64,000 bases of DNA, from assembly GCA_963729895.1 (NCBI GenBank), contig CAVSQB010000009.1:32001-96000 (forward strand), written 5' to 3'. This DNA comes from an uncultured Fibrobacterota bacterium (lineage in GTDB: Bacteria > Fibrobacterota > Chitinivibrionia > Chitinivibrionales > FEN-1185). The notes beneath the pieces are model-generated. The model had not been told where the DNA came from. It was given only the letters and a program-made list of their open reading frames with translations, and searched no databases. This document shows positions 1 through 12,695 of the stretch, one piece after another; the stretch's first letter is position 1; every line of letters begins with the position of its first letter. Position numbers and translations under genes: made by a program.

Positions 1-571
1 GCACGGAAAAGTGACCGGCGTGAGATGCAGGCCTATGCGGCCGGGTCAGTTCGACAATTCGGGCCGCCGCAGGCCGGAACCGGTCGATGGAAAAGACTAC
101 GTCCTTGAAGCCGACCAGGTGATCGCGGCCATCGGCCAGCGCGTTGACACAAAAGAAGTTTTCGACGGCATCACCCTCGCAACCACCGCATGGGGCACCA
201 TCGAGACGAACCGCGCCAACGGCCGGACTTCGGTGCCGTGGATATTTTCCGGCGGCGACGCCGCCAGCGGCCCGTCGAGCGTGGTCGAGGCAATTGCGGC
301 AGGCGAACGCGCCGCGGTTGGTATCGACGCGTTCCTCACCGGCGAAAGCCACGCGTTCTGGCGTCACGAAGCGGAGACGGCAACCGCGTTCGACCCGGAC
401 GCCGATCCCGTGCCCTACGGCCGGGAAAAGCAGCCGGCAATCAGCATTGACAAAAGGCGCAACAACTTCAACGAGGTTGAACAGAGCTGGACCGAAGACG
501 TGGCCATTTGCCAGGCAAAACGCTGCCTGCGCTGCGACTGGGGCAAAAAAACAGTGCACGAAAGGAGATAA
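1..571 (+). CDS. C-terminal part of a GltD-like FAD/NAD(P)-dependent oxidoreductase (5' truncated by window edge), probably a hydrogenase partner subunit
   Basis: ADQVIAAIGQ, IFSGGDAASGPSSVVEAIAAG and terminal AKRCLRCD motifs typical of GltD/NfnB-family C-termini; ends 5 bp before hydA. Confidence 0.8.
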   Translation, partial: HGKVTGVRCRPMRPGQFDNSGRRRPEPVDGKDYVLEADQVIAAIGQRVDTKEVFDGITLATTAWGTIETNRANGRTSVPWIFSGGDAASGPSSVVEAIAAGERAAVGIDAFLTGESHAFWRHEAETATAFDPDADPVPYGREKQPAISIDKRRNNFNEVEQSWTEDVAICQAKRCLRCDWGKKTVHERR

Positions 572-576
572 AGGCC

Positions 577-2349
577 ATGCCGGCCATAACCATCAACAAT
601 ACGCAGGTTACCGTTCCGGAGGGAACAACCATTCTCGCAGCTGCAAAGCGCGCGGGAGTTCACATACCCACGCTTTGTTTTCTTGAAGGACTCGACGCAA
701 TCGGCGCATGCCGCATCTGTGTCGTGGAGGTTGAAGGCGCAAAGAGCCTTGTTGCCTCGTGCTCCGTCCCGGTCACGGAGGGTATGAAAGTCAGAACCAA
801 TTCCAAGCGCGTTCGCGAAGCGCGCCGCACCGTGATGGAATTGCTGCTTTCCGAGCACGACGGAGACTGCCAGACCTGCGAGCGGAACGAAGACTGCGAG
901 CTGCAGAAAATAGCAAGCGACCTCGGCATCCGCTCGGTGCGGTATGCAGGCGAGAGGACCTCGGCTCGTCTTGACGAGAGCACGCCGGGGCTGGTGCGCA
1001 ACAACTCCAAGTGCATCAAGTGCAGGCGATGCGTTGCGGTATGCAACAACACGCAGAAGGTCGGCGCGTTGTTCCCGCAGTGGCGCGGCTTTAAGACCGT
1101 TATCGGGCCGGCGTTCGCTTCGGATCTTGGCAGCGTGACATGCGTTCAATGCGGCCAGTGCGCCGCCGTCTGCCCTGTCGGCGCAATAGTGGAACACAGC
1201 CACATCCAGAAAGTCTGGGACGCGCTCGAGGATCCGAAAAAAACCGTTGTGGTGCAAACCGCCCCGGCGGTTCGCGCAGCGCTCGGCGAGTGCTTCGGGT
1301 ATGAACCCGGAACCCTTGTGACAGGCAAAATGGTGTCGGCCCTGCGGCGTCTCGGGTTTGCTACCGTATTCGATACCAATTTCACCGCAGACCTTACCAT
1401 CATAGAAGAAGGAACCGAACTCCTCACCCGTCTCAAGAAAGCTATCCTGGACAAGGAACCGGTTGCGCTTCCGCAGTTTACAAGCTGCTCGCCCGGATGG
1501 ATCAAGTATGTGGAACATTTCTATCCGGAACTTCTCCCCAACCTTTCCACCTGTAAATCGCCGCAGCAGATGTTCGGCGCGCTTGCCAAAACGTACTGGG
1601 CGCAGAAAGTAGGCAAGCGGCCTGAGGAGATCTTTGTCGTGTCGATCATGCCGTGCACCGCCAAGAAATTCGAAGCCGCCAGGCCCGAAATGAACGACAG
1701 CGGGTCGCAGGACGTTGACGCTGTGCTGACCACACGCGAACTGGCCCGCATGATCAAACAGGCCGGCATCGACTTTGCGGGGCTGGAAGACGACACGTTC
1801 GACCGTGTGATGGGCGTATCCTCGGGAGCGGGCGACATTTTCGCCAACACCGGCGGCGTCATGGAAGCGGCGCTGCGCACCGCATACGAAATTGTGACCG
1901 GCAGGCCGCTCCCGTTCGATCTCCTGCACGTGCAGCCGATAGCCGGACTCGAAGGCATAAAGGAAGCGCGGCTCACCATCACCGGCACCGTGCCCGAATG
2001 GTCGTTTCTCGAAAACGTGACCCTGAGCGTTGCCGTGTCGCACGGCCTGGGAAATGCGCAGAAGGTGATAGAGCGGATCACGTCCGGCAAGGCCGCATAC
2101 CACTTTGTCGAGGTCATGACCTGCCCGGGCGGTTGCATCGGCGGCGGCGGTCAGCCCCGGCTCACCAATGACGCCAAACGGAAGCAGAGGATCAAGGCAA
2201 TTTACAAAGAAGATGAAAGCAAGAAACTGCGCAAGTCGCATGACAATCCGAAAGTGAAACAGGTGTATGGAGAATTTCTCAAGATTCCGCTTGGAGAAAA
2301 ATCACACCACCTGTTGCATACCACCTATACGGTGAGGGAACGCGTATAG
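577..2349 (+). CDS. hydA: [FeFe]-hydrogenase group A catalytic subunit with N-terminal 2Fe-2S, His-ligated 4Fe-4S and 2x4Fe-4S domains
   Basis: H-cluster motifs TSCSPGW, MPCTAKKFE, EVMTCPGGCIGGGGQP; HDGDCQTC; CIKCRRC and CVQCGQC; AAGGAG RBS before ATG 577. Confidence 0.95.
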   Translation: MPAITINNTQVTVPEGTTILAAAKRAGVHIPTLCFLEGLDAIGACRICVVEVEGAKSLVASCSVPVTEGMKVRTNSKRVREARRTVMELLLSEHDGDCQTCERNEDCELQKIASDLGIRSVRYAGERTSARLDESTPGLVRNNSKCIKCRRCVAVCNNTQKVGALFPQWRGFKTVIGPAFASDLGSVTCVQCGQCAAVCPVGAIVEHSHIQKVWDALEDPKKTVVVQTAPAVRAALGECFGYEPGTLVTGKMVSALRRLGFATVFDTNFTADLTIIEEGTELLTRLKKAILDKEPVALPQFTSCSPGWIKYVEHFYPELLPNLSTCKSPQQMFGALAKTYWAQKVGKRPEEIFVVSIMPCTAKKFEAARPEMNDSGSQDVDAVLTTRELARMIKQAGIDFAGLEDDTFDRVMGVSSGAGDIFANTGGVMEAALRTAYEIVTGRPLPFDLLHVQPIAGLEGIKEARLTITGTVPEWSFLENVTLSVAVSHGLGNAQKVIERITSGKAAYHFVEVMTCPGGCIGGGGQPRLTNDAKRKQRIKAIYKEDESKKLRKSHDNPKVKQVYGEFLKIPLGEKSHHLLHTTYTVRERV

Positions 2350-6194: not shown

Positions 6195-7319
6195 TTAATA
6201 TACGTGCGGAGGAACCGCCGCGGCGCATCGTGCCGCAAAATGCCTCGGATCACCCCATGCGTTCAGCGTGATGTCCCTGCCCAGGGACCGTATCCTTTGT
6301 TCGAGACAGGTCCTGCAAACATCCGCGTTTTCATCCAAACACGGTTTTCCCTCGTAAAGCTGGTATTCCCTGCGAACGCGGGGCGGCGTTGCCTGCGGCA
6401 TCACAACGTTGGCGCCGTGCTGCAAACCCAACTCCCTTCCGAGCGGTTCCATCGCCTGCAACGCGGTTGTGGATGCAATGTTCACATCACGGCATACGAG
6501 CCTGGCGACCGCGATCATTCGCAGCGCGAGATCGAACACCTGTTTCTTGCGACCGGCCGCTTCCTGTCCAAGCCCGGCCAGGGGGGTCTGTTTGTGAACG
6601 ATGTACGGCCCCATGCCGATCATGTCGACATCCTGCCGTTTGAAAAACAAAATGTCGTCTGCCAGATCCGCGATGGCTTGACTGGGCAGGCCGATCATCA
6701 CCCCCGTGCCGACCTGATACCCTATGTCCCGGAGACAGATCAGGCTTTGCATACGGGCATCGAATGTTTGCCCGGCCGGATGCAGCCGCGAAAAGAGTTC
6801 GGGCGACGACGTTTCGATTCTCAGCAGGTACCGGTGCGCGCCGGCCTCAAAGAAGCGCCGGTACGTTTCCGGCGTTTGTTCGCCCACGCTCAGAGTAATC
6901 CCCAGCCCCTGCGGAAGGCCGGCGCTTGCCGTTTTTGCCTTGATCGCGGCAACCACATCTTCCACAAACACAACGAATTGACCGTCACGGCGTTCACCGG
7001 ACTGCAGAACCATCGATCCGTATCCCGCCTCTGCGCAGAACACGGCGGCTTCGACGATTTCCTCTTTGGACAAAGTGTACCGGTTCACTGCCGCGTTGCT
7101 TCTCCGTATGCCGCAGTAGCGGCAGTCGCACCGGCACTCGTTGGAAAATTCCACAAGGCCGCGCAAATAAACGTTGGTTCCGCAATTATCAACAAGAGTA
7201 TGGAACGCGGCCCGGCGGACGGCCTCGGCGTCCAAAGGGTCGGTTGCGGACAGCAGGGCGATGATGTCGTTTTTGTCAAATGATTGCTTAGTGAGAATAC
7301 GAGTTATGTTGCTGGACAT
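6195..7319 (-). CDS. hydE: [FeFe]-hydrogenase maturase HydE (radical SAM)
   Basis: RGLVEFSNECRCDCRYCG (CxxxCxxC), LQSGE, GANVVMP, YQLYEGKPC; in hydFG cluster. Confidence 0.93.
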   Translation of the reverse strand: MSSNITRILTKQSFDKNDIIALLSATDPLDAEAVRRAAFHTLVDNCGTNVYLRGLVEFSNECRCDCRYCGIRRSNAAVNRYTLSKEEIVEAAVFCAEAGYGSMVLQSGERRDGQFVVFVEDVVAAIKAKTASAGLPQGLGITLSVGEQTPETYRRFFEAGAHRYLLRIETSSPELFSRLHPAGQTFDARMQSLICLRDIGYQVGTGVMIGLPSQAIADLADDILFFKRQDVDMIGMGPYIVHKQTPLAGLGQEAAGRKKQVFDLALRMIAVARLVCRDVNIASTTALQAMEPLGRELGLQHGANVVMPQATPPRVRREYQLYEGKPCLDENADVCRTCLEQRIRSLGRDITLNAWGDPRHFAARCAAAVPPHVY

Positions 7320-7402
7320 CTGTTGCCCTTTAGCTAAGACATAGTTATACAAGAATCATTTGGATTGCTGAGCCGGTTCAGCCAGAGCTCTGGAAAAAGA
7401 TT

Positions 7403-7540
7403 TGGGCGTTTCCCTCGCTACGCTCGGGCCGGTCTCCCTCCGGGCTCGGCCGAAAGGCCTCGTTGCCACCCGCCCTACGCCTGTCGGCCGGGTCGGCCGG
7501 CAATCCCGCTTTGGCGGGACCGCTCCGGTCCACCTAACGC
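7403..7540. repeat. Structured intergenic element 1 (closed by GCGTT/AACGC, internal hairpins)
   Basis: Hairpins GGCC-GAAA-GGCC 7448-7459 and TCCCGC-TTTG-GCGGGA 7504-7519; terminal complementarity. Confidence 0.45.
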
Positions 7541-7621
7541 AAATCAAAACCAAAAAGTACGACACTCCTTTCCCTCAAAATTCACTTTCGCCTGTCAACT
7601 TTTGTTCGTCAACCGTTCTAT

Positions 7622-7795
7622 AGGTGCCCCGCACGAGTGCTTGCTTTCAGCAACCGCACTTGCTTGGGGGCCACCTGCAGAGGGGGCGTGGGTTCAGACA
7701 ACCGGCTACAATCGGTTCCGACAGTTGCAGCACGCCGGTTGACTGAACCTCAGGGGACGACGCTTGGAAGTACCCGACGGGGTAAACTTCCCCCA
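7622..7795. other. Structured intergenic element 2 (three consecutive long stem-loops); candidate ncRNA or repeat
   Basis: Stems 7622-7676, 7691-7749 (GGTTCAG/CTGAACC, CAACCGGC/GCCGGTTG) and 7766-7791. Confidence 0.45.
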
Positions 7796-7831
7796 TCAAA
7801 AAACCAATTCTCTAATCCATCATTTTTGATC

Positions 7832-9322
7832 CTAAAAATACAGGTCTCTCTCCCCTGCTTTTGTCCTCCCATAATTCTTCATGAATGCCTCATACACCAT
7901 CGGATTCCTTTCCCGTATTTCAGCTATTTCTTTGTCAATGACAACTTCTCCTGCCGCCTTTGTGGGCTCGCTTGCAAAATCATCCAGCCATTCCCGGAAA
8001 GTAATCACCGCGTTCAATTTGCAGAATTTGCCTTCCTGCCCGCTGCGCAGCAGATCCATGATGCATTTTCCCGTCCTTCCGCAACGGTATCCGGCGGTGC
8101 AGAACGAGGTGATGCAGCCCCGGTTTGCTAAATACCCGATGAGTTCGTCGAGCGAGCGGGTGTCGCCCAGAATAAACTGCTGGCGGTCCGGCTGCTGCTG
8201 TGGCTTCGCGTCGCTATACGCGCCAAGCCCCACTTTCGAGGACGCGTCCATCTGGGTGATGCCGAGGGGAACAAGGTTGTTTCGCATGTCGGCCGATTCG
8301 CGCGCAGTGAGGATCATGCCGGTATACGGAACCGCGAGCCTGAGCACGGTTATTGCCCGTCTGAATTCGTCGTCGGCGGGCGGATGCGGCAGGGCCGCGG
8401 TGAGCGGCGTGTTCTGCGCAGGCTCAATGCGGGGGAACGAAATGGTGTGCGGGCCGATGCCGAAAGTCCGTTCGAGCTCAATGGCGTGACAGAGCAGCCC
8501 CATCACCTCAAACTTCCATTTGTAAAGTCCGAACAGGGCGCCTATCCCGACATCCTCGATTCCCGCCTCCATGGCGCGATGCATGCAGTACAGCCGCCAC
8601 TGGTAATCCCCCTTGAGCGTGTCGGCCGGATGCATGGTGCGGTATGTCTCGTGGTGATACGTCTCATGGAACACCTGATAGGTGCCGAGGCCTACCTCGT
8701 GAAGGACCCGCAGGTCTTCCACGGTCATGGGCGCGGCATTCACATTGACGCGGCGAATGGAGCCGGACCCGTTTTTTGTTTTTGTTCGGACGCTGTAAAT
8801 TGTCCGAAGCGTCTCGGCAATATAGTCGGTATCGGACGCAGGATGTTCGCCATAGACCGCAATGAGCCGTTTGTGGCCGATCCCGCCAGCCAGGACCTCG
8901 GTCTCGCGCCGGACTTCGTCCTGCGTGAGAACGCCGCGTTTCATCTCGGCGTTTTCGTTTCTGAAACCGCAGTACCGGCAATTGTTGACGCACCTGGTGC
9001 TCATGTACAGCGGCGCAAATGTCACGATGCGGTTGTCATACACTTTTTTCTTTATGGCGAGCGCCGCCTCTTCCATTTCCGCAACAAGCGAGGGATCGCG
9101 CACGTTAAGCAGCGTTGCGGTCTCGGAGGGAGTCAGGGTCTGAATCGCGAGAGATTTCTGGATGATCGCGCGAACCGCCGCGGCGTCGCTCTTTGTGTTC
9201 TCGGCGAGAGCGCGTTCAAGTGCGCCATCGTCGATAAAATCCGTTGTCCCGGCCATGTATTTCACGCGCTGGCCACGGGGGATTCTTTTCTCGATCCACG
9301 AACCGATTGTTGTGGTACTCAT
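7832..9322 (-). CDS. hydG: [FeFe]-hydrogenase maturase HydG (radical SAM tyrosine lyase)
   Basis: FAPLYMSTRCVNNCRYCG, FHETYH, GPHTISFPRIEPA, C-terminal CX5CX19C auxiliary cluster motif. Confidence 0.95.
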   Translation of the reverse strand: MSTTTIGSWIEKRIPRGQRVKYMAGTTDFIDDGALERALAENTKSDAAAVRAIIQKSLAIQTLTPSETATLLNVRDPSLVAEMEEAALAIKKKVYDNRIVTFAPLYMSTRCVNNCRYCGFRNENAEMKRGVLTQDEVRRETEVLAGGIGHKRLIAVYGEHPASDTDYIAETLRTIYSVRTKTKNGSGSIRRVNVNAAPMTVEDLRVLHEVGLGTYQVFHETYHHETYRTMHPADTLKGDYQWRLYCMHRAMEAGIEDVGIGALFGLYKWKFEVMGLLCHAIELERTFGIGPHTISFPRIEPAQNTPLTAALPHPPADDEFRRAITVLRLAVPYTGMILTARESADMRNNLVPLGITQMDASSKVGLGAYSDAKPQQQPDRQQFILGDTRSLDELIGYLANRGCITSFCTAGYRCGRTGKCIMDLLRSGQEGKFCKLNAVITFREWLDDFASEPTKAAGEVVIDKEIAEIRERNPMVYEAFMKNYGRTKAGERDLYF

Positions 9323-10578
9323 GACGTTTTCCCTTTGTTAATGCAAGCCCGGTTGAACGCATCCAACGCGGCCGGAAAAGGCTGCAGAACACGCTCGACA
9401 ACTCCCTGGATGAACGAAATGCACAAACCGTAATTCGTAACGGCCACGCCTGCCTCAACGGCCGTACGGATTCGCACCAGTGTTTCCCTTCGTGTCAACA
9501 TGCACGAGCCGCAATGCACCACAAGCTTGTAGTCGGCAAGGTCTGCCGGATAGTCGCGGCCGCAGGACACCTCGAAGGAAAGGTCGGCCCCGGTGTACTG
9601 CCGGAGCCATCGCGGAATTTTCACCCTGCCGATATCGTCCTGAAGCGCATGGTGCGCACAAGCCTCCGCTATAAGCACCCGGTCGCCGTTTGCAAGCGAA
9701 TCGATGGCGGCCAGACCTGCCGCCTGGGCGACAAGATCGCCTTTGCTTCGCGAAAACAAAATGGAAAACGTGGTGCACGGTACGGCAGTCGGCGTGTCCG
9801 CCACCATTTTCATCACCGCCTGGGAATCGCATACGACAATGTCCGGCCTTACCGACAATGTGCCGAGCAGCGACGCATATTCACGCTCTTTGACCACAAT
9901 AACCGCGGCATCGTTGTCCAACGCATCGCGGATGGTCTGCACCTGCGGCAGAATGAGCCGCCCCCGGGGCGCTCCAAGATCGACGGGCACAACCAGCACT
10001 GCGATGCCGCCCGGCGAAACCAGATCGCCCACCAGCGGAAGTTCCTGTGGCTGCGAACCTGCAGCGAGCATGGCAATGTTTTTCTTGAACTCATTGACGC
10101 ACGCGTCCCGTCCGGGCAGGTCAAGGCAGGAGGAAGTCATCACGGCGCCGCCCGCGCGCGCGCACTGCTCCAGAAATTCCGAAGATGCGGCGTTCATGTC
10201 TGCCTTGTTCGCAACGATCAGACATCCTGCGCCGCGTTTCTTCGCCTCCGCGCAGACCGAATCTTCATACCGCGTCCACAGGCCGCCGTCGGTCACAAGC
10301 ACAAACACATCCGCCCGATCAAACACGCCCTGCGTTTTTTTCAGCCGGGCTGCCGAAAGCGCCGATTCATCGTCCACGCCGGCCGTATCAAGGAACACCA
10401 CAGGTCCAACCGTGCCGAGTTCCATGGCCTTTTCCACCACGTCGGTGGTGGTACCGGGGATCGCGCTGGTCACGCTGATATCCTGGCCCGCAAGGTAATT
10501 GAGAAAACTCGACTTCCCCACGTTGGTCCTTCCGAATATCCCGATCTGCAGCCGCATCGATTTTGGAGTTGTTTCCAT
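9319..10578 (-). CDS. hydF: [FeFe]-hydrogenase maturation GTPase HydF
   Basis: GRTNVGKS, GTTTD, DTAG, NKAD; GRLILPQVQ; ACAH...HCGSC cluster motif. Confidence 0.95.
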   Translation of the reverse strand: METTPKSMRLQIGIFGRTNVGKSSFLNYLAGQDISVTSAIPGTTTDVVEKAMELGTVGPVVFLDTAGVDDESALSAARLKKTQGVFDRADVFVLVTDGGLWTRYEDSVCAEAKKRGAGCLIVANKADMNAASSEFLEQCARAGGAVMTSSCLDLPGRDACVNEFKKNIAMLAAGSQPQELPLVGDLVSPGGIAVLVVPVDLGAPRGRLILPQVQTIRDALDNDAAVIVVKEREYASLLGTLSVRPDIVVCDSQAVMKMVADTPTAVPCTTFSILFSRSKGDLVAQAAGLAAIDSLANGDRVLIAEACAHHALQDDIGRVKIPRWLRQYTGADLSFEVSCGRDYPADLADYKLVVHCGSCMLTRRETLVRIRTAVEAGVAVTNYGLCISFIQGVVERVLQPFPAALDAFNRACINKGKTS

Positions 10579-10581
10579 GTG

Positions 10582-11985
10582 TTATACCTTGTTTCCCCTT
10601 GCAGCCGGGCCGGGCATCCGGTGCCCGGGCGCCATGAGACGCTGCGGAGACAGAGCGTCGTCAACAATCGATTTCCCCAATTTCCTTTCGAGAAAACCGC
10701 GGAACGACCTTTCGCCGGATGCGGCAAACTCAGTCACCAGGTTCTGCCCCGCCTCGTAGCCTATTTCCGGCAGAAACGCGGTCACGATAGCAGTGCTCTC
10801 CTCGACATGTTTGCCGCACACATCGGGTCGGGCAACGATGCCGTCAACGTGCCGCGCAAGCATGCGGTCGACTGCAGCGCACACATCCATTGCATCAAGC
10901 AACGCGTGGCCGAGCAGCGGAAGGAATTCGTTGATCTGAAAGGTCCCCATTGCGGCAGTTTCGGTCACCACGGCAACATCGGCCTTTGCCTGAACAGCAG
11001 CGTTAATCGCCGCTTCACACATCACGGGATTTACCTTCCCCGGCATCGCCGACGAACCTGTCTGGACCGCCGGCAGCAGGATCTCGCCGAAATAATGCAG
11101 CAGCCGCAGGTCGCCGGCGATCTTCTGAAGATTGACGGCATGCGCCGCGATCATTCCCGCAACCTCCACGAACATGTCCGCGTTTGCCGTGAGGTCCATG
11201 GCATTTTCCGCCCGCGACAGGCCCAGTCCCGTGGCCTCCCGCAGTTTTTCAATTACCAGAAATAGGTAGTTCGTCGGCGCCGCCAAACCCGTTCCGATGG
11301 CTGTGCCGCCGATCGTAACGACACGCAACCGTTCTTCGCTCTTGAAGGTCCTCCAGCGGTCACGGCCGATTGCTTCGGCAAAGCACGCAAACTGGCTCCC
11401 CAGCGTCATGGGGACCGCGTTCTGCATCTCGGTGCGGCCAATCGTCACGATGCGCGAAAACTCATTCTCCTTCTTCTGAAATGATCCCTGCAGCAACGCC
11501 GCCGCTTCCGATAGTGCGCGAAGCCCGTTGATTGCCGCTACTTTGAGCGCAGTAGGATACACGTCGTTGGTTGATTGATGCAGATTGACGTGGCTGAGGG
11601 GGTGGATCGTTTCGTAATCCCCCTTGGGCTTTCCAATCAATTCCAGGGCGCGGTTGGCCACCACTTCGTTGACATTCATGTTGGTCGACGTGCCGGCCCC
11701 GCCCTGGAGAGCATCCAGCACGAACTGCCCGGCCAGACCGCCGGCGATAATCTCGTCGCAGGCCGCCGCAATCGCGCCCGCCTTCCGCACCTCCAGATAG
11801 CCGAGCTGTGCATTGGCGGCGGCGCACGCCTTCTTGACATTTGCAATTGCCGCGACAAGTCCGGGGTGCACGCGCCGTCCGCCCAGCACGAAGTTCTCGT
11901 GCGCGCGAAGCGTGTGGATTCCCCAATATGCCTCGGCCGGAATTTCGCGTTCGCCGAGAAGATCATGTTCGGTGCGGGTTTTCAT
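10582..11985 (-). CDS. aspA: Aspartate ammonia-lyase (fumarase/aspartase family)
   Basis: QGGAGTSTNMNVNEV, QSTND, GSSAMPGKVNP signature. Confidence 0.9.
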   Translation of the reverse strand: MKTRTEHDLLGEREIPAEAYWGIHTLRAHENFVLGGRRVHPGLVAAIANVKKACAAANAQLGYLEVRKAGAIAAACDEIIAGGLAGQFVLDALQGGAGTSTNMNVNEVVANRALELIGKPKGDYETIHPLSHVNLHQSTNDVYPTALKVAAINGLRALSEAAALLQGSFQKKENEFSRIVTIGRTEMQNAVPMTLGSQFACFAEAIGRDRWRTFKSEERLRVVTIGGTAIGTGLAAPTNYLFLVIEKLREATGLGLSRAENAMDLTANADMFVEVAGMIAAHAVNLQKIAGDLRLLHYFGEILLPAVQTGSSAMPGKVNPVMCEAAINAAVQAKADVAVVTETAAMGTFQINEFLPLLGHALLDAMDVCAAVDRMLARHVDGIVARPDVCGKHVEESTAIVTAFLPEIGYEAGQNLVTEFAASGERSFRGFLERKLGKSIVDDALSPQRLMAPGHRMPGPAARGNKV

Positions 11986-11988
11986 GGC

Positions 11989-12249
11989 CTACTCGATCCC
12001 GTTCTGTTTACCGAGCATCGATTTCACCGAAACACCCGTGAGCGTCCCCAGCTTTCCCGTGAGCGCGCCCACATGGTCGGTGGTTGCGTCCACCACGAGC
12101 ATGATCACGGAATACTGGTCGCGCACATGCGGCACGCCCGTGCGCACGACGATCATGTCGCCGAATGCCGACAGGATCTTGTTGACTTCGTCCGCCCACT
12201 TCTTCCGGTCGTGGATTATTATTCCGACGAATCCGACGCGCTTCTCCAT
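11989..12249 (-). CDS. TM1266-family small ACT-like protein (putative iron-only hydrogenase system regulator)
   Basis: MEKRVGFVGII...VNKILS...RTGVP...GALTGKLGTLTGVSVKS; GGAGG RBS; first gene of maturation operon. Confidence 0.85.
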   Translation of the reverse strand: MEKRVGFVGIIIHDRKKWADEVNKILSAFGDMIVVRTGVPHVRDQYSVIMLVVDATTDHVGALTGKLGTLTGVSVKSMLGKQNGIE

Positions 12250-12277
12250 TGTTCCTCCTTCGTGCGAGACGCCCGAC

Positions 12278-12324
12278 AAAAAAATCCCGCCTCCGGCTCC
12301 CCGTGAAGAGCCGAAATCGGGATT
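12278..12324 (-). terminator. Intrinsic terminator inside the 5' leader of the maturation operon (attenuator)
   Basis: 17-bp stem with one mismatch, G-U pairs valid only on minus strand, ending in a U7 tract about 30 nt before the start codon. Confidence 0.85.
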
Positions 12325-12344
12325 GCTATTTGAAATGGAATTGT

Positions 12345-12453
12345 TCTTTTCACCGGTAACCCTTGGCCTTAGAGCCGTGCTCCGCATCCTCAGGAAATTC
12401 TTGCTTGCGAGGTCTGCGCCTCAGAAGCATCACAGTGGGTTCAATCCAGGTTA
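12345..12453 (-). ncRNA. Candidate riboswitch-like cis-regulatory RNA (unrecognised family)
   Basis: Closing helix UAACCUGG/CCAAGGGUUA, internal helices CUGUG/CACGG, UGCUU/AAGCA, GAGG/CCUC; 3' strand overlaps a potential antiterminator. Confidence 0.55.
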
Positions 12454-12476
12454 TATGTGACTGTTTTCACATATAA
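12451..12476. promoter_or_regulatory. Rex-type operator palindrome TTATATGTGA-CTGTTT-TCACATATAA
   Basis: Perfect 10-bp arms; core resembles Rex consensus TTGTGAA-N4-TTCACAA; adjacent to rex gene. Confidence 0.8.
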
Positions 12477-12506
12477 TGCTTCATGCGCATACATGCATTC
12501 GCTAAT

Positions 12507-12535
12507 AGTATACCACGTTTTTGGCATGAAGTCAA
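12507..12535 (-). promoter_or_regulatory. sigma70 promoter of hydrogenase maturation operon
   Basis: TTGACT-17 bp-TATACT with TG extended -10 on minus strand. Confidence 0.8.
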
Positions 12536-12695
12536 TATTTATTGTGAAATATATGATATTAGTTTCCTGATCAATCGTAGAGCCGTGGCAACCTCCGGCA
12601 TCCTTTCCGCCTGTTAAAGATCCGTAATCACCGGCTTTCACATTTTCCTCTATGATCCGTGGCGCTGCTATTATGTGAAAAGTGTTACGACAAAC

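Follow-up and report, generated by a model that had tools for sequence, protein, structure and literature searches.

The leader of the hydrogenase maturation operon

We analyzed a 64,000-nt stretch of DNA from an uncultured Fibrobacterota bacterium (the whole stretch is referred to here as the window). Its minus strand carries a gene for a TM1266-like protein followed by an aspartate-ammonia-lyase-like (aspA-like) gene, hydF, hydG, and hydE (Table 1). The sole group-A [FeFe] hydrogenase gene of the genome also lies within the window, at ~508-2349 on the plus strand. The gene upstream of the leader of the maturation operon is not hydA, and a promoter separates that gene from the motif described below.

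An initial annotation of this DNA, made from the letters alone, had placed an attenuator between a promoter and the TM1266-like gene. We found all of the letters that it quoted in place on the minus strand. Its promoter at 12507-12535 proved to be a sigma-70-like site, TTGACT-17-TATACT with TG in the spacer, and we infer from it that transcription of the operon starts near position 12500 on the minus strand. The strong terminator that it had described at 12324-12278 was equally real, with a hairpin of -23.9 kcal/mol followed by U7. At 12322-12278 a G+C-rich hairpin stands directly before a U-tract, which is the arrangement of an intrinsic terminator; a simple terminator scan missed the hairpin (12322-12285) because it contains two internal loops.

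The leader between the promoter and the TM1266-like gene is ~250 nt long on the minus strand. When a 256-nt leader was folded and compared with shuffled sequences, the z score was -2.20, and 2 of 200 shuffles folded equally well or better. The 5′ part of the leader (12400-12500) showed no BLASTN similarity in 60 relatives and is unconserved; two leaders from the same genus (L004 and L005) do not have it. The nested helices that the initial annotation had drawn in this part are likewise unconserved.

Table 1. Features of the leader and the operon in the window.
Feature	Position	Strand	Details
Promoter-like site, sigma-70-like	12535-12507	-	10 of 12 positions match
-35 element, TTGACT	12535-12530	-	part of the promoter-like site
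-10 element, TATACT	12512-12507	-	17-nt spacer with TG upstream
5′ leader part	12400-12500	-	long imperfect hairpin in the minimum free energy (MFE) structure; holds the nested helices of the initial annotation
Conserved hairpin motif, core of ~40 nt	12397-12360	-	covariance-model match 12404-12350
P1	U12395-U12392 x A12363-G12360	-	register ambiguous by 1 nt; CCU/AGG base helix
P1b, 2-bp helix	G12389,G12388 x C12366,C12365	-	
P2, covarying apical helix	12383-12379 x 12375-12371	-	loop 12378-12376
Predicted antiterminator, 5′ strand	12392-12380	-	motif 5′ half UGAGGA.GC.GAG; partner 12315-12304
Predicted antiterminator, 3′ strand	12315-12304	-	within terminator 5′ arm and loop
Extra antiterminator pairing (predicted)	CCC 12321-12319 x GGG 12362-12360	-	
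Intrinsic terminator	12324-12278	-	hairpin 12322-12285 (-23.9 kcal/mol) and U-tract 12284-12278 (U7)
Shine-Dalgarno sequence, AAGGAGG	12260-12254	-	upstream of the TM1266-like gene
Start codon ATG of the TM1266-like gene	12249-12247	-	
TM1266-like gene, 86 aa	12249-11989	-	PF21699; candidate trans-acting effector
Rest of the controlled operon behind the TM1266-like gene	6195-11985	-	
aspA-like gene	11985-10582	-	
hydF	10578-9319	-	
hydG	9322-7832	-	
hydE	7352-6195	-	

A conserved hairpin upstream of TM1266 genes

The leaders proved too diverged for BLASTN, and so they were collected by way of TM1266 protein homologues instead; a BLASTN search with the window leader against 60 relatives had returned only one match, of 40 nt in the promoter region, in one genome (G014). 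When 450 nt upstream of the gene were read, 22 of the 30 TM1266 loci of the order were found to share a block of ~45 nt just before a terminator. The block reads, in order, CCUG-N-GG, then 2-3 nt usually ending in A, a GG...CU hairpin, (G)A-NN-CC-A, and AGGG. We built a covariance model (R1) from 22 instances, with the window as one of its seeds, and used a second model (R2) to extend it. A third, leave-out model (R3) was made from 63 instances and excluded both the window and its same-genus relatives. With R1 there was exactly one match per locus in 22 of the 30 TM1266 loci, and the genome to which the window belongs gave a single credible match. Of 81 genomes from the window's order, 33 carried the motif, each of them once.

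The motif is a hairpin of three helices (P1, P1b, and P2) with conserved junctions, or an internal loop, between them. Across 78 instances, counted on a model-fitted alignment in which related sequences inflate the shuffle test, 81.6% of the cells meant to pair were paired, versus 76.1±0.7 in shuffles, double changes filled 97 cells versus 47.6±9.8, and the covariation score was 0.292 versus 0.199; none of 500 shuffles reached any of these values. When the pairing partners were slid against each other, the score was 0.14 or less. P1b was paired in 95.5% of cases, by GC, GU, and AU pairs, and P2 in 87%, with many compensatory changes. In P1 only the inner 3-4 pairs are solid and the three outer pairs are mostly unpaired; two registers of this helix fit about equally, with 73.7% paired over 7 pairs versus 79.1% over 6. 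Conservation and covariation in homologous leaders, which the initial annotation had named as its own test, were both strong, and this held across phyla. In the R3 consensus both strands of the hairpin read CCUG-N4-5-AAGG, giving a two-fold pseudo-symmetric duplex.

We also compared the hairpin with RNA elements that known proteins recognize. A kink-turn consists of a 3-nt bulge followed by tandem G.A/A.G pairs, with the GA of the other strand abutting the C-stem. An L7Ae-type kink-turn was rejected here, as two extra nucleotides lie between the GA and the 2-bp helix and, in the alignments, the bulged strand goes on with GG and not with GA. A CsrA-type site was rejected by eye.

The window holds the most divergent of the R1 seeds, scoring 27.4 bits with that model. 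With R3, from which it had been left out, the window copy scored 18.4 bits (E 0.017 in 64 kb) and was the top match, the next reaching 9.8 bits. In an R3 search of the whole genome (4.4 Mb) it was not listed at E≤1, and a fragment without P2 on another contig scored 21.7 bits. Its position fits the family, with motif (12397-12360), terminator (12322-12278), and gene start (12249) on one strand, and its three helices form, together with the conserved CCUG...GG and CCAAGGG blocks, in the MFE structure of the nascent transcript and in the alignment. The junctions of the window copy deviate in having AUGC for NAA and A for G after P2; the A-for-G change is also found in over a dozen further instances. 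We consider it likely that this divergent copy still works.

A scan of GTDB species genomes supplied the 80 best TM1266 loci. R1 matched 74 of them and R2 added two, for 76 of 80, and in these loci the motif was always on the strand of the gene, 12-895 nt upstream of it. Among the four loci without a match, one had only 264 nt upstream and three bear Fermentibacteria-type labels. Going by the titles of the MAG records, quoted as written, the positive loci come from about nine phyla, under the labels Fibrobacterota, Omnitrophota, Planctomycetota, Lentisphaerae, Verrucomicrobiota/Pontiella, Bacteroidota, Spirochaetia, Clostridia, and KSB3/Moduliflexus. Of 151 Omnitrophota genomes sampled independently, 43 held the motif once each. 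Some matches were set aside as spurious, namely a secondary match in locus L151, which is inside a long ORF, a match in G035, which has no P2 and falls within overlapping frames, and the match at G000:C8:107803-107844, which also has no P2.

Cultured carriers appear to exist: three loci (L090, L112, and L126) have titles that refer to isolates of Maribellus and Draconibacterium. The motif copies in these three loci score weakly.

In searches against Rfam 15, the window as a whole contained no match that reached gathering score, and the interval 12150-12650 contained none at E≤10. In the loci of 20 relatives the only match was sub-threshold, to a miRNA family and on a terminator, and the four matches in 13 loci of other phyla were also sub-threshold and lay away from the motif. 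The families left unmatched include SAM, TPP, FMN, cobalamin, NiCo, T-box, PyrR, and Moco/Wco, which agrees with the earlier impression, by eye, that the cores of SAM-I, TPP, FMN, cobalamin, NiCo, and T-box RNAs are lacking. In the main texts of the openly accessible literature that we searched, there was no description of the motif and the TM1266 papers contained nothing on RNA; in the main text of PMC5737381 the terms hydrogenase, hya, and hydG occur 0 times. A family of attenuator hairpins in front of TM1266 and hyd genes is apparently widespread and uncatalogued.

Predicted alternative pairing between the hairpin and the terminator

A crude script detected a terminator downstream of the motif in 74 of 88 distinct instances; in several of the 14 that it missed, the U-run of the terminator is interrupted. 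A complement of the motif 5′ half occurs in many lineages within the terminator, in its 5′ arm or its apical loop, for example ...CUGCAGGA... opposite UCCUGCGG, or CUCAGG against the motif's CCUGAGG. In other lineages, among them part of the window's order, the 3′ strand of P1 takes this role, with GGGAACGGGA opposite UCCCGUUCCC. When the complementarity between the motif 5′ half and the terminator 5′ half was compared with that of random windows from the same locus, it beat at least 95% of them in 29 of 73 instances, where ~3.7 would be expected, and more than 99% of them in 17 of 73; in 44 of the 73 it was not significant.

In the window, a transcript ending just after the motif had exactly the consensus hairpin as its MFE structure. 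For a transcript ending in the terminator loop, the antiterminator was predicted at -20.0 kcal/mol, versus -16.3 kcal/mol with the hairpin enforced, and the same antiterminator MFE of -20.0 kcal/mol was obtained when the terminator 3′ arm was forbidden to pair. The complete leader favored the hairpin together with the terminator, at -40.3 kcal/mol. These in silico folds share the mark of PyrR-type attenuators, in that a strand of the hairpin is also the partner of the terminator 5′ arm. The antiterminator duplex of the window, taken by itself, was no better than shuffles (fraction 0.18), so the switch in the window rests on the pattern of the family. Such a leader would have an anti-antiterminator layout, in which stabilization of the hairpin should mean termination (OFF).

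The mutually exclusive OFF layout that the initial annotation had put forward agrees with these predicted folds, with another pairing, 12392-12380 with 12315-12304 plus 12362-12360 with 12321-12319. Its own antiterminator, 12361-12345 with 12309-12295, is indeed complementary (-14.4 kcal/mol), but we rejected it as the conserved switch because it overlaps the conserved hairpin by only ~2 nt, persists in part when that hairpin is enforced, and was not seen in same-genus relatives. The core idea of a new OFF attenuator responsive to a ligand or a protein is supported; the structural model given for it is wrong in detail. The element is to be narrowed to 12404-12278 and its pairings revised. We think it very probable that the motif defines a family of functional cis-regulatory attenuators.

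Candidate effectors and related systems

The distribution of the motif was compared with that of the genes behind it. In 77 loci, the gene following TM1266 was aspA-like in 25, hydG in 30, hydF in 19, and hydE in 1, with none in 2, and the motif stays in front of TM1266 although the following gene varies. Among 61 relatives, HydF is encoded in 46 and TM1266 in 29. There were no motif matches in the 17 relatives that have HydF and lack TM1266. The motif adjoins TM1266 in 22 of the 29 TM1266-positive relatives, and in four others (G026, G037, G042, and weakly G015) it lies before hydG, with TM1266 elsewhere, behind an unrelated gene. TM1266 was found in 49 of the 151 Omnitrophota genomes. Of the 43 genomes in this sample with a motif match, 42 encode TM1266; the 43rd match, in the TM1266-negative genome G092, lies inside a 257-aa coding frame and was judged spurious, and the 102 TM1266-negative Omnitrophota genomes thus gave no credible match. 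Directly upstream of TM1266 lay 29 of the 30 Omnitrophota matches that were fetched and, by coordinates, 12 of the other 13. In one Omnitrophota genome (G200) the motif precedes hydG, and TM1266, at another locus, has a weak second copy upstream; all five genomes with the motif before hydG (G200 and the four relatives above) encode TM1266 elsewhere. TM1266 occurred without a detectable motif in 7 of the 49 TM1266-positive Omnitrophota genomes, in G034 and G012, and in three loci labeled Fermentibacteria.

A motif that is never credibly present without TM1266, while TM1266 is sometimes present without the motif, is what would be expected if the RNA needs the protein. The motif tracks TM1266 and not hydrogenase maturation in general, a distribution that favors the TM1266 protein over a free metabolite. 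This co-occurrence agrees with the earlier naming of TM1266 as one candidate binder. Cassette linkage could explain most of the co-occurrence, and only about three independent lineages stand behind the cases in which motif and TM1266 are unlinked.

Annotations of TM1266-like proteins go no further than "putative regulator." The protein encoded in the window matched PF21699 at 95.2 bits against a cut-off of 27, and TM1266 itself (2nzc) at an E value of 3.8e-21. Its predicted structure (pLDDT 91.2) has the order beta-alpha-beta-beta-alpha-beta (E-H-E-E-H-E). Its fold neighbors were 2nzc, then the C-terminal nickel/tetramerization domains of NikR, and then an ACT domain, and the NikR C-domain aligned with the model at a Foldseek E value of 3e-6 and a TM-score of ~0.8. 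The protein is a stand-alone ACT/NikR-C-like domain without a DNA-binding domain. An alignment of 17 sequences contained no invariant His or Cys, and its invariant positions included Arg, Gly, and Thr; loci whose TM1266 gene has no motif next to it retain the same invariant residues. Ribosomal protein S6 was a weak fold match only, and is neutral with respect to RNA binding. We know of no RNA-binding activity in the ACT/NikR-C-like fold family. It is plausible that a symmetric TM1266 oligomer would suit the pseudo-symmetric loop of the hairpin.

The reading that we put forward is attenuation of the PyrR type with the TM1266-like, ACT/NikR-C-fold protein as effector, and we rate its chances as about even. 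Transcription would start near 12500, and the conserved hairpin (12397-12360) would fold first. If nothing held the hairpin, its 5′ half (12392-12380) would pair with the emerging 5′ arm of the terminator (12315-12304), and once this antiterminator had formed RNA polymerase would read into TM1266-aspA-like-hydF-hydG-hydE. If an effector held the hairpin closed, the terminator (12322-12285 and U7) would form and the operon would be off. The likeliest effector would be the TM1266-like protein, in the form of an oligomer whose ACT-like fold may carry a small ligand. By binding the two-fold pseudo-symmetric internal loop, it would exert negative feedback on H-cluster maturation.

The hairpin could instead be a true riboswitch that binds a small molecule or an ion, with the bound state favoring the terminator (OFF) and TM1266 being merely the first gene, for example a maturation accessory. 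Much about the motif would suit such an RNA: the element is small, its internal-loop nucleotides are highly conserved and its apical helix is variable, a weak P1 overlaps the expression platform, many phyla carry it with diverse antiterminator solutions, it stands directly before hydG in five genomes, and no Rfam family matches it. Against this, there is one credible copy per genome (G200 has a second, weak one) and none in TM1266-negative genomes, with 0 matches in the 17 HydF-positive, TM1266-negative relatives and 0 credible ones in the 102 Omnitrophota. An OFF switch would also need an end-product signal, and the end product here would be protein-bound; nor does the gene set suggest a candidate ligand. 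We regard a riboswitch as possible, if doubtful, and one for a small molecule of H-cluster assembly (a by-product or intermediate of the radical-SAM enzymes HydG and HydE, or an iron species), with TM1266 an accessory and not a regulator, as rather unlikely. Another trans-acting factor, such as a maturase, a global RNA-binding protein, or a small RNA, would fit the same conservation and switch architecture, with TM1266 only co-inherited. No other gene is as constantly tied to the motif, however, the genes after TM1266 vary, and HydF-positive genomes without TM1266 have no motif, which makes this an improbable account.

In many loci (for example G200) the motif comes directly behind the stop codon of the [FeFe] hydrogenase, and it could in principle be a terminator or 3′-end stability element of the upstream gene (often hydA) with a hairpin conserved by chance. 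We consider this very improbable, given that the window has a gene other than hydA upstream and a promoter in between, that the motif keeps its place relative to the downstream TM1266 or hydG whatever lies upstream, and that complementarity between the motif 5′ half and the terminator would have no role in a plain terminator. No more credible is a leader peptide, for which AAGGG(G)AG on the 3′ side of the hairpin would be a Shine-Dalgarno sequence and translation of a short ORF through the terminator would set the read-through. In 14 of 88 instances the motif is indeed followed, at a distance of 3-9 nt, by a start of the form (A/G)UGA(A/G)A, some of the ORFs reach the terminator, and in the window an ORF of 44 codons runs from GUG 12353 to 12219; yet 14 of 88 is a small share, the peptides range from 3 to 75 residues with no conserved sequence, and the arrangement is absent from same-genus relatives. 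We give almost no credence to the ~97-nt aptamer of the initial annotation (12453-12357), in which a closing helix, 12453-12446 with 12366-12357, would compete with the pairing of 12361-12345 and 12309-12295. Both pairings are possible, at -5.2 and -14.4 kcal/mol, but the closing duplex is weak and the domain appears in none of the computed MFE structures, it has no counterpart in relatives, including two species of the same genus, and the covariance-model match and the covariation span only 12404-12350.

To our knowledge, the regulation of H-cluster assembly for [FeFe] hydrogenases is largely unknown. If TM1266 binds the hairpin, the ACT/NikR-C fold would gain a role in RNA-binding attenuation and hydrogenase maturation would gain a feedback loop. 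If the hairpin binds a metabolite, it would represent a new riboswitch class, and a riboswitch for H-cluster assembly would be the first RNA sensor tied to the biogenesis of the [FeFe] hydrogenase metallocofactor. Either outcome for the effector would add a family that is missing from Rfam 15.

Several known systems resemble parts of this arrangement. Among solved folds, only TM1266 itself comes closer to the TM1266-like protein than the C-terminal domain of NikR does, but TM1266-like proteins have neither the ribbon-helix-helix DNA-binding domain of NikR nor an invariant His or Cys. Small OFF riboswitches, such as THF-II/folE and xanthine/NMT1, are hairpins of ~45 nt with a conserved internal loop. 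The motif is similar to them in size, in its conserved internal-loop nucleotides, and in a terminator platform that overlaps the putative aptamer; it differs in having no Rfam match, in occurring once per genome, and in being tied to one family of putative regulators. In the trp and hut systems, the small oligomeric proteins TRAP and HutP bind a metabolite and then repeated RNA elements, and in this way set termination. The repetition of the CCUG-N4-5-AAGG word on the two strands of our hairpin recalls those repeated elements, whereas the folds and the RNA sites are unrelated and TM1266 is only a putative binder of RNA or ligand.

The closest working analogue of the proposed TM1266 attenuation is PyrR, whose gene is the first one behind the first attenuator of its own operon. 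The motif shares with that system the order of a hairpin, an antiterminator, a terminator, and then the gene of a small putative regulator. It differs in that the RNA has no Rfam match and that, where PyrR is a phosphoribosyltransferase, the 86-aa protein here is an ACT/NikR-C-like domain. In the account of the Bacillus subtilis pyr operon given in PMC4347634, PyrR stabilizes an anti-antiterminator that sequesters the antiterminator, so that the terminator forms. A TM1266-like protein bound to the conserved hairpin would act in the same way.

Position of the motif relative to hydG and TM1266

The conserved hairpin motif precedes hydG in one of the order's families (loci L186, L188, L189 and L190, from the related genomes G026, G037, G042 and G015). 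The TM1266 gene of the same family lies directly behind an unrelated gene and is leaderless (L026, L030, L031). At the hydG locus L186, the sequence complementary to the 5' block of the motif again overlaps a small terminator.

We also examined motif copies from five Bacteroidota loci (L084, L090, L112, L126 and L132), which had weak scores and a very short P2. Our script found no canonical terminator after the motif in any of these five loci; a block of the CCUGCAGAAU type, complementary to the 5' half of the motif, was located approximately 60-90 nt downstream instead.

The genome from which the window derives carries, in addition, a motif-like fragment that was scored with R3, the covariance model built from 63 instances excluding the window and its same-genus relatives. 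Both outer motif blocks are present (UCCUGCGGUAA ... CCCAAGGG), with P2 replaced by just 4 nt, and the frames around the fragment had no Pfam match. A similar fragment without P2 occurs in the related genome G035. The fragment in the window's genome is probably a chance resemblance.

Features in the window and its genome
Feature	Position	Strand	Remark
Group-A [FeFe] hydrogenase gene	508-2349	+	530 bits, above family cut-off
MATE transporter gene	6228-4762	-	between hydrogenase gene and maturation operon
Aspartate-ammonia-lyase-like gene	10582-11985	-	NF008909 at about its cut-off
ORF, 44 codons	12219-12353	-	GUG start at 12353
P2-less motif-like fragment	G000:C8:107803-107844 = L034:1501-1542	-	21.7 bits with R3

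Genes in and near the maturation operon

The aspartate-ammonia-lyase-like gene is common in these maturation operons; it immediately follows TM1266 in the window and in 25 of 77 loci. The hydrogenase gene, the only group-A [FeFe] gene above the family cut-off in the window's genome, lies about 4 kb past the end of the operon on the opposite strand.

Other elements of the leader

In the MFE structure, the leader's initial ~100 nt (12400-12500, minus strand) fold into a long imperfect hairpin, for which relatives lack an equivalent. The short ORF begins at a GUG 7 nt past the motif's AAGGG, extends across the terminator and overlaps the start of TM1266. Of 88 distinct motif instances, 14 had an SD-like sequence plus (A/G)UGA(A/G)A; the encoded peptides are not conserved.

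Two loci harbored inserts between the terminator and TM1266, of 895 nt (L077:1606-2500) and 294 nt (L085:2207-2500). Because the longer one contains an ORF and repeated blocks, its sequence suggests a mobile insertion. In Omnitrophota loci, including L070, L071, L098 and L119, the same interval holds one to several copies per leader of a repeated, G+C-rich hairpin that reads ...CACCCGCGCAAUACC...UUAGCGCGGGGUGU... and resembles REP-type intergenic repeats.
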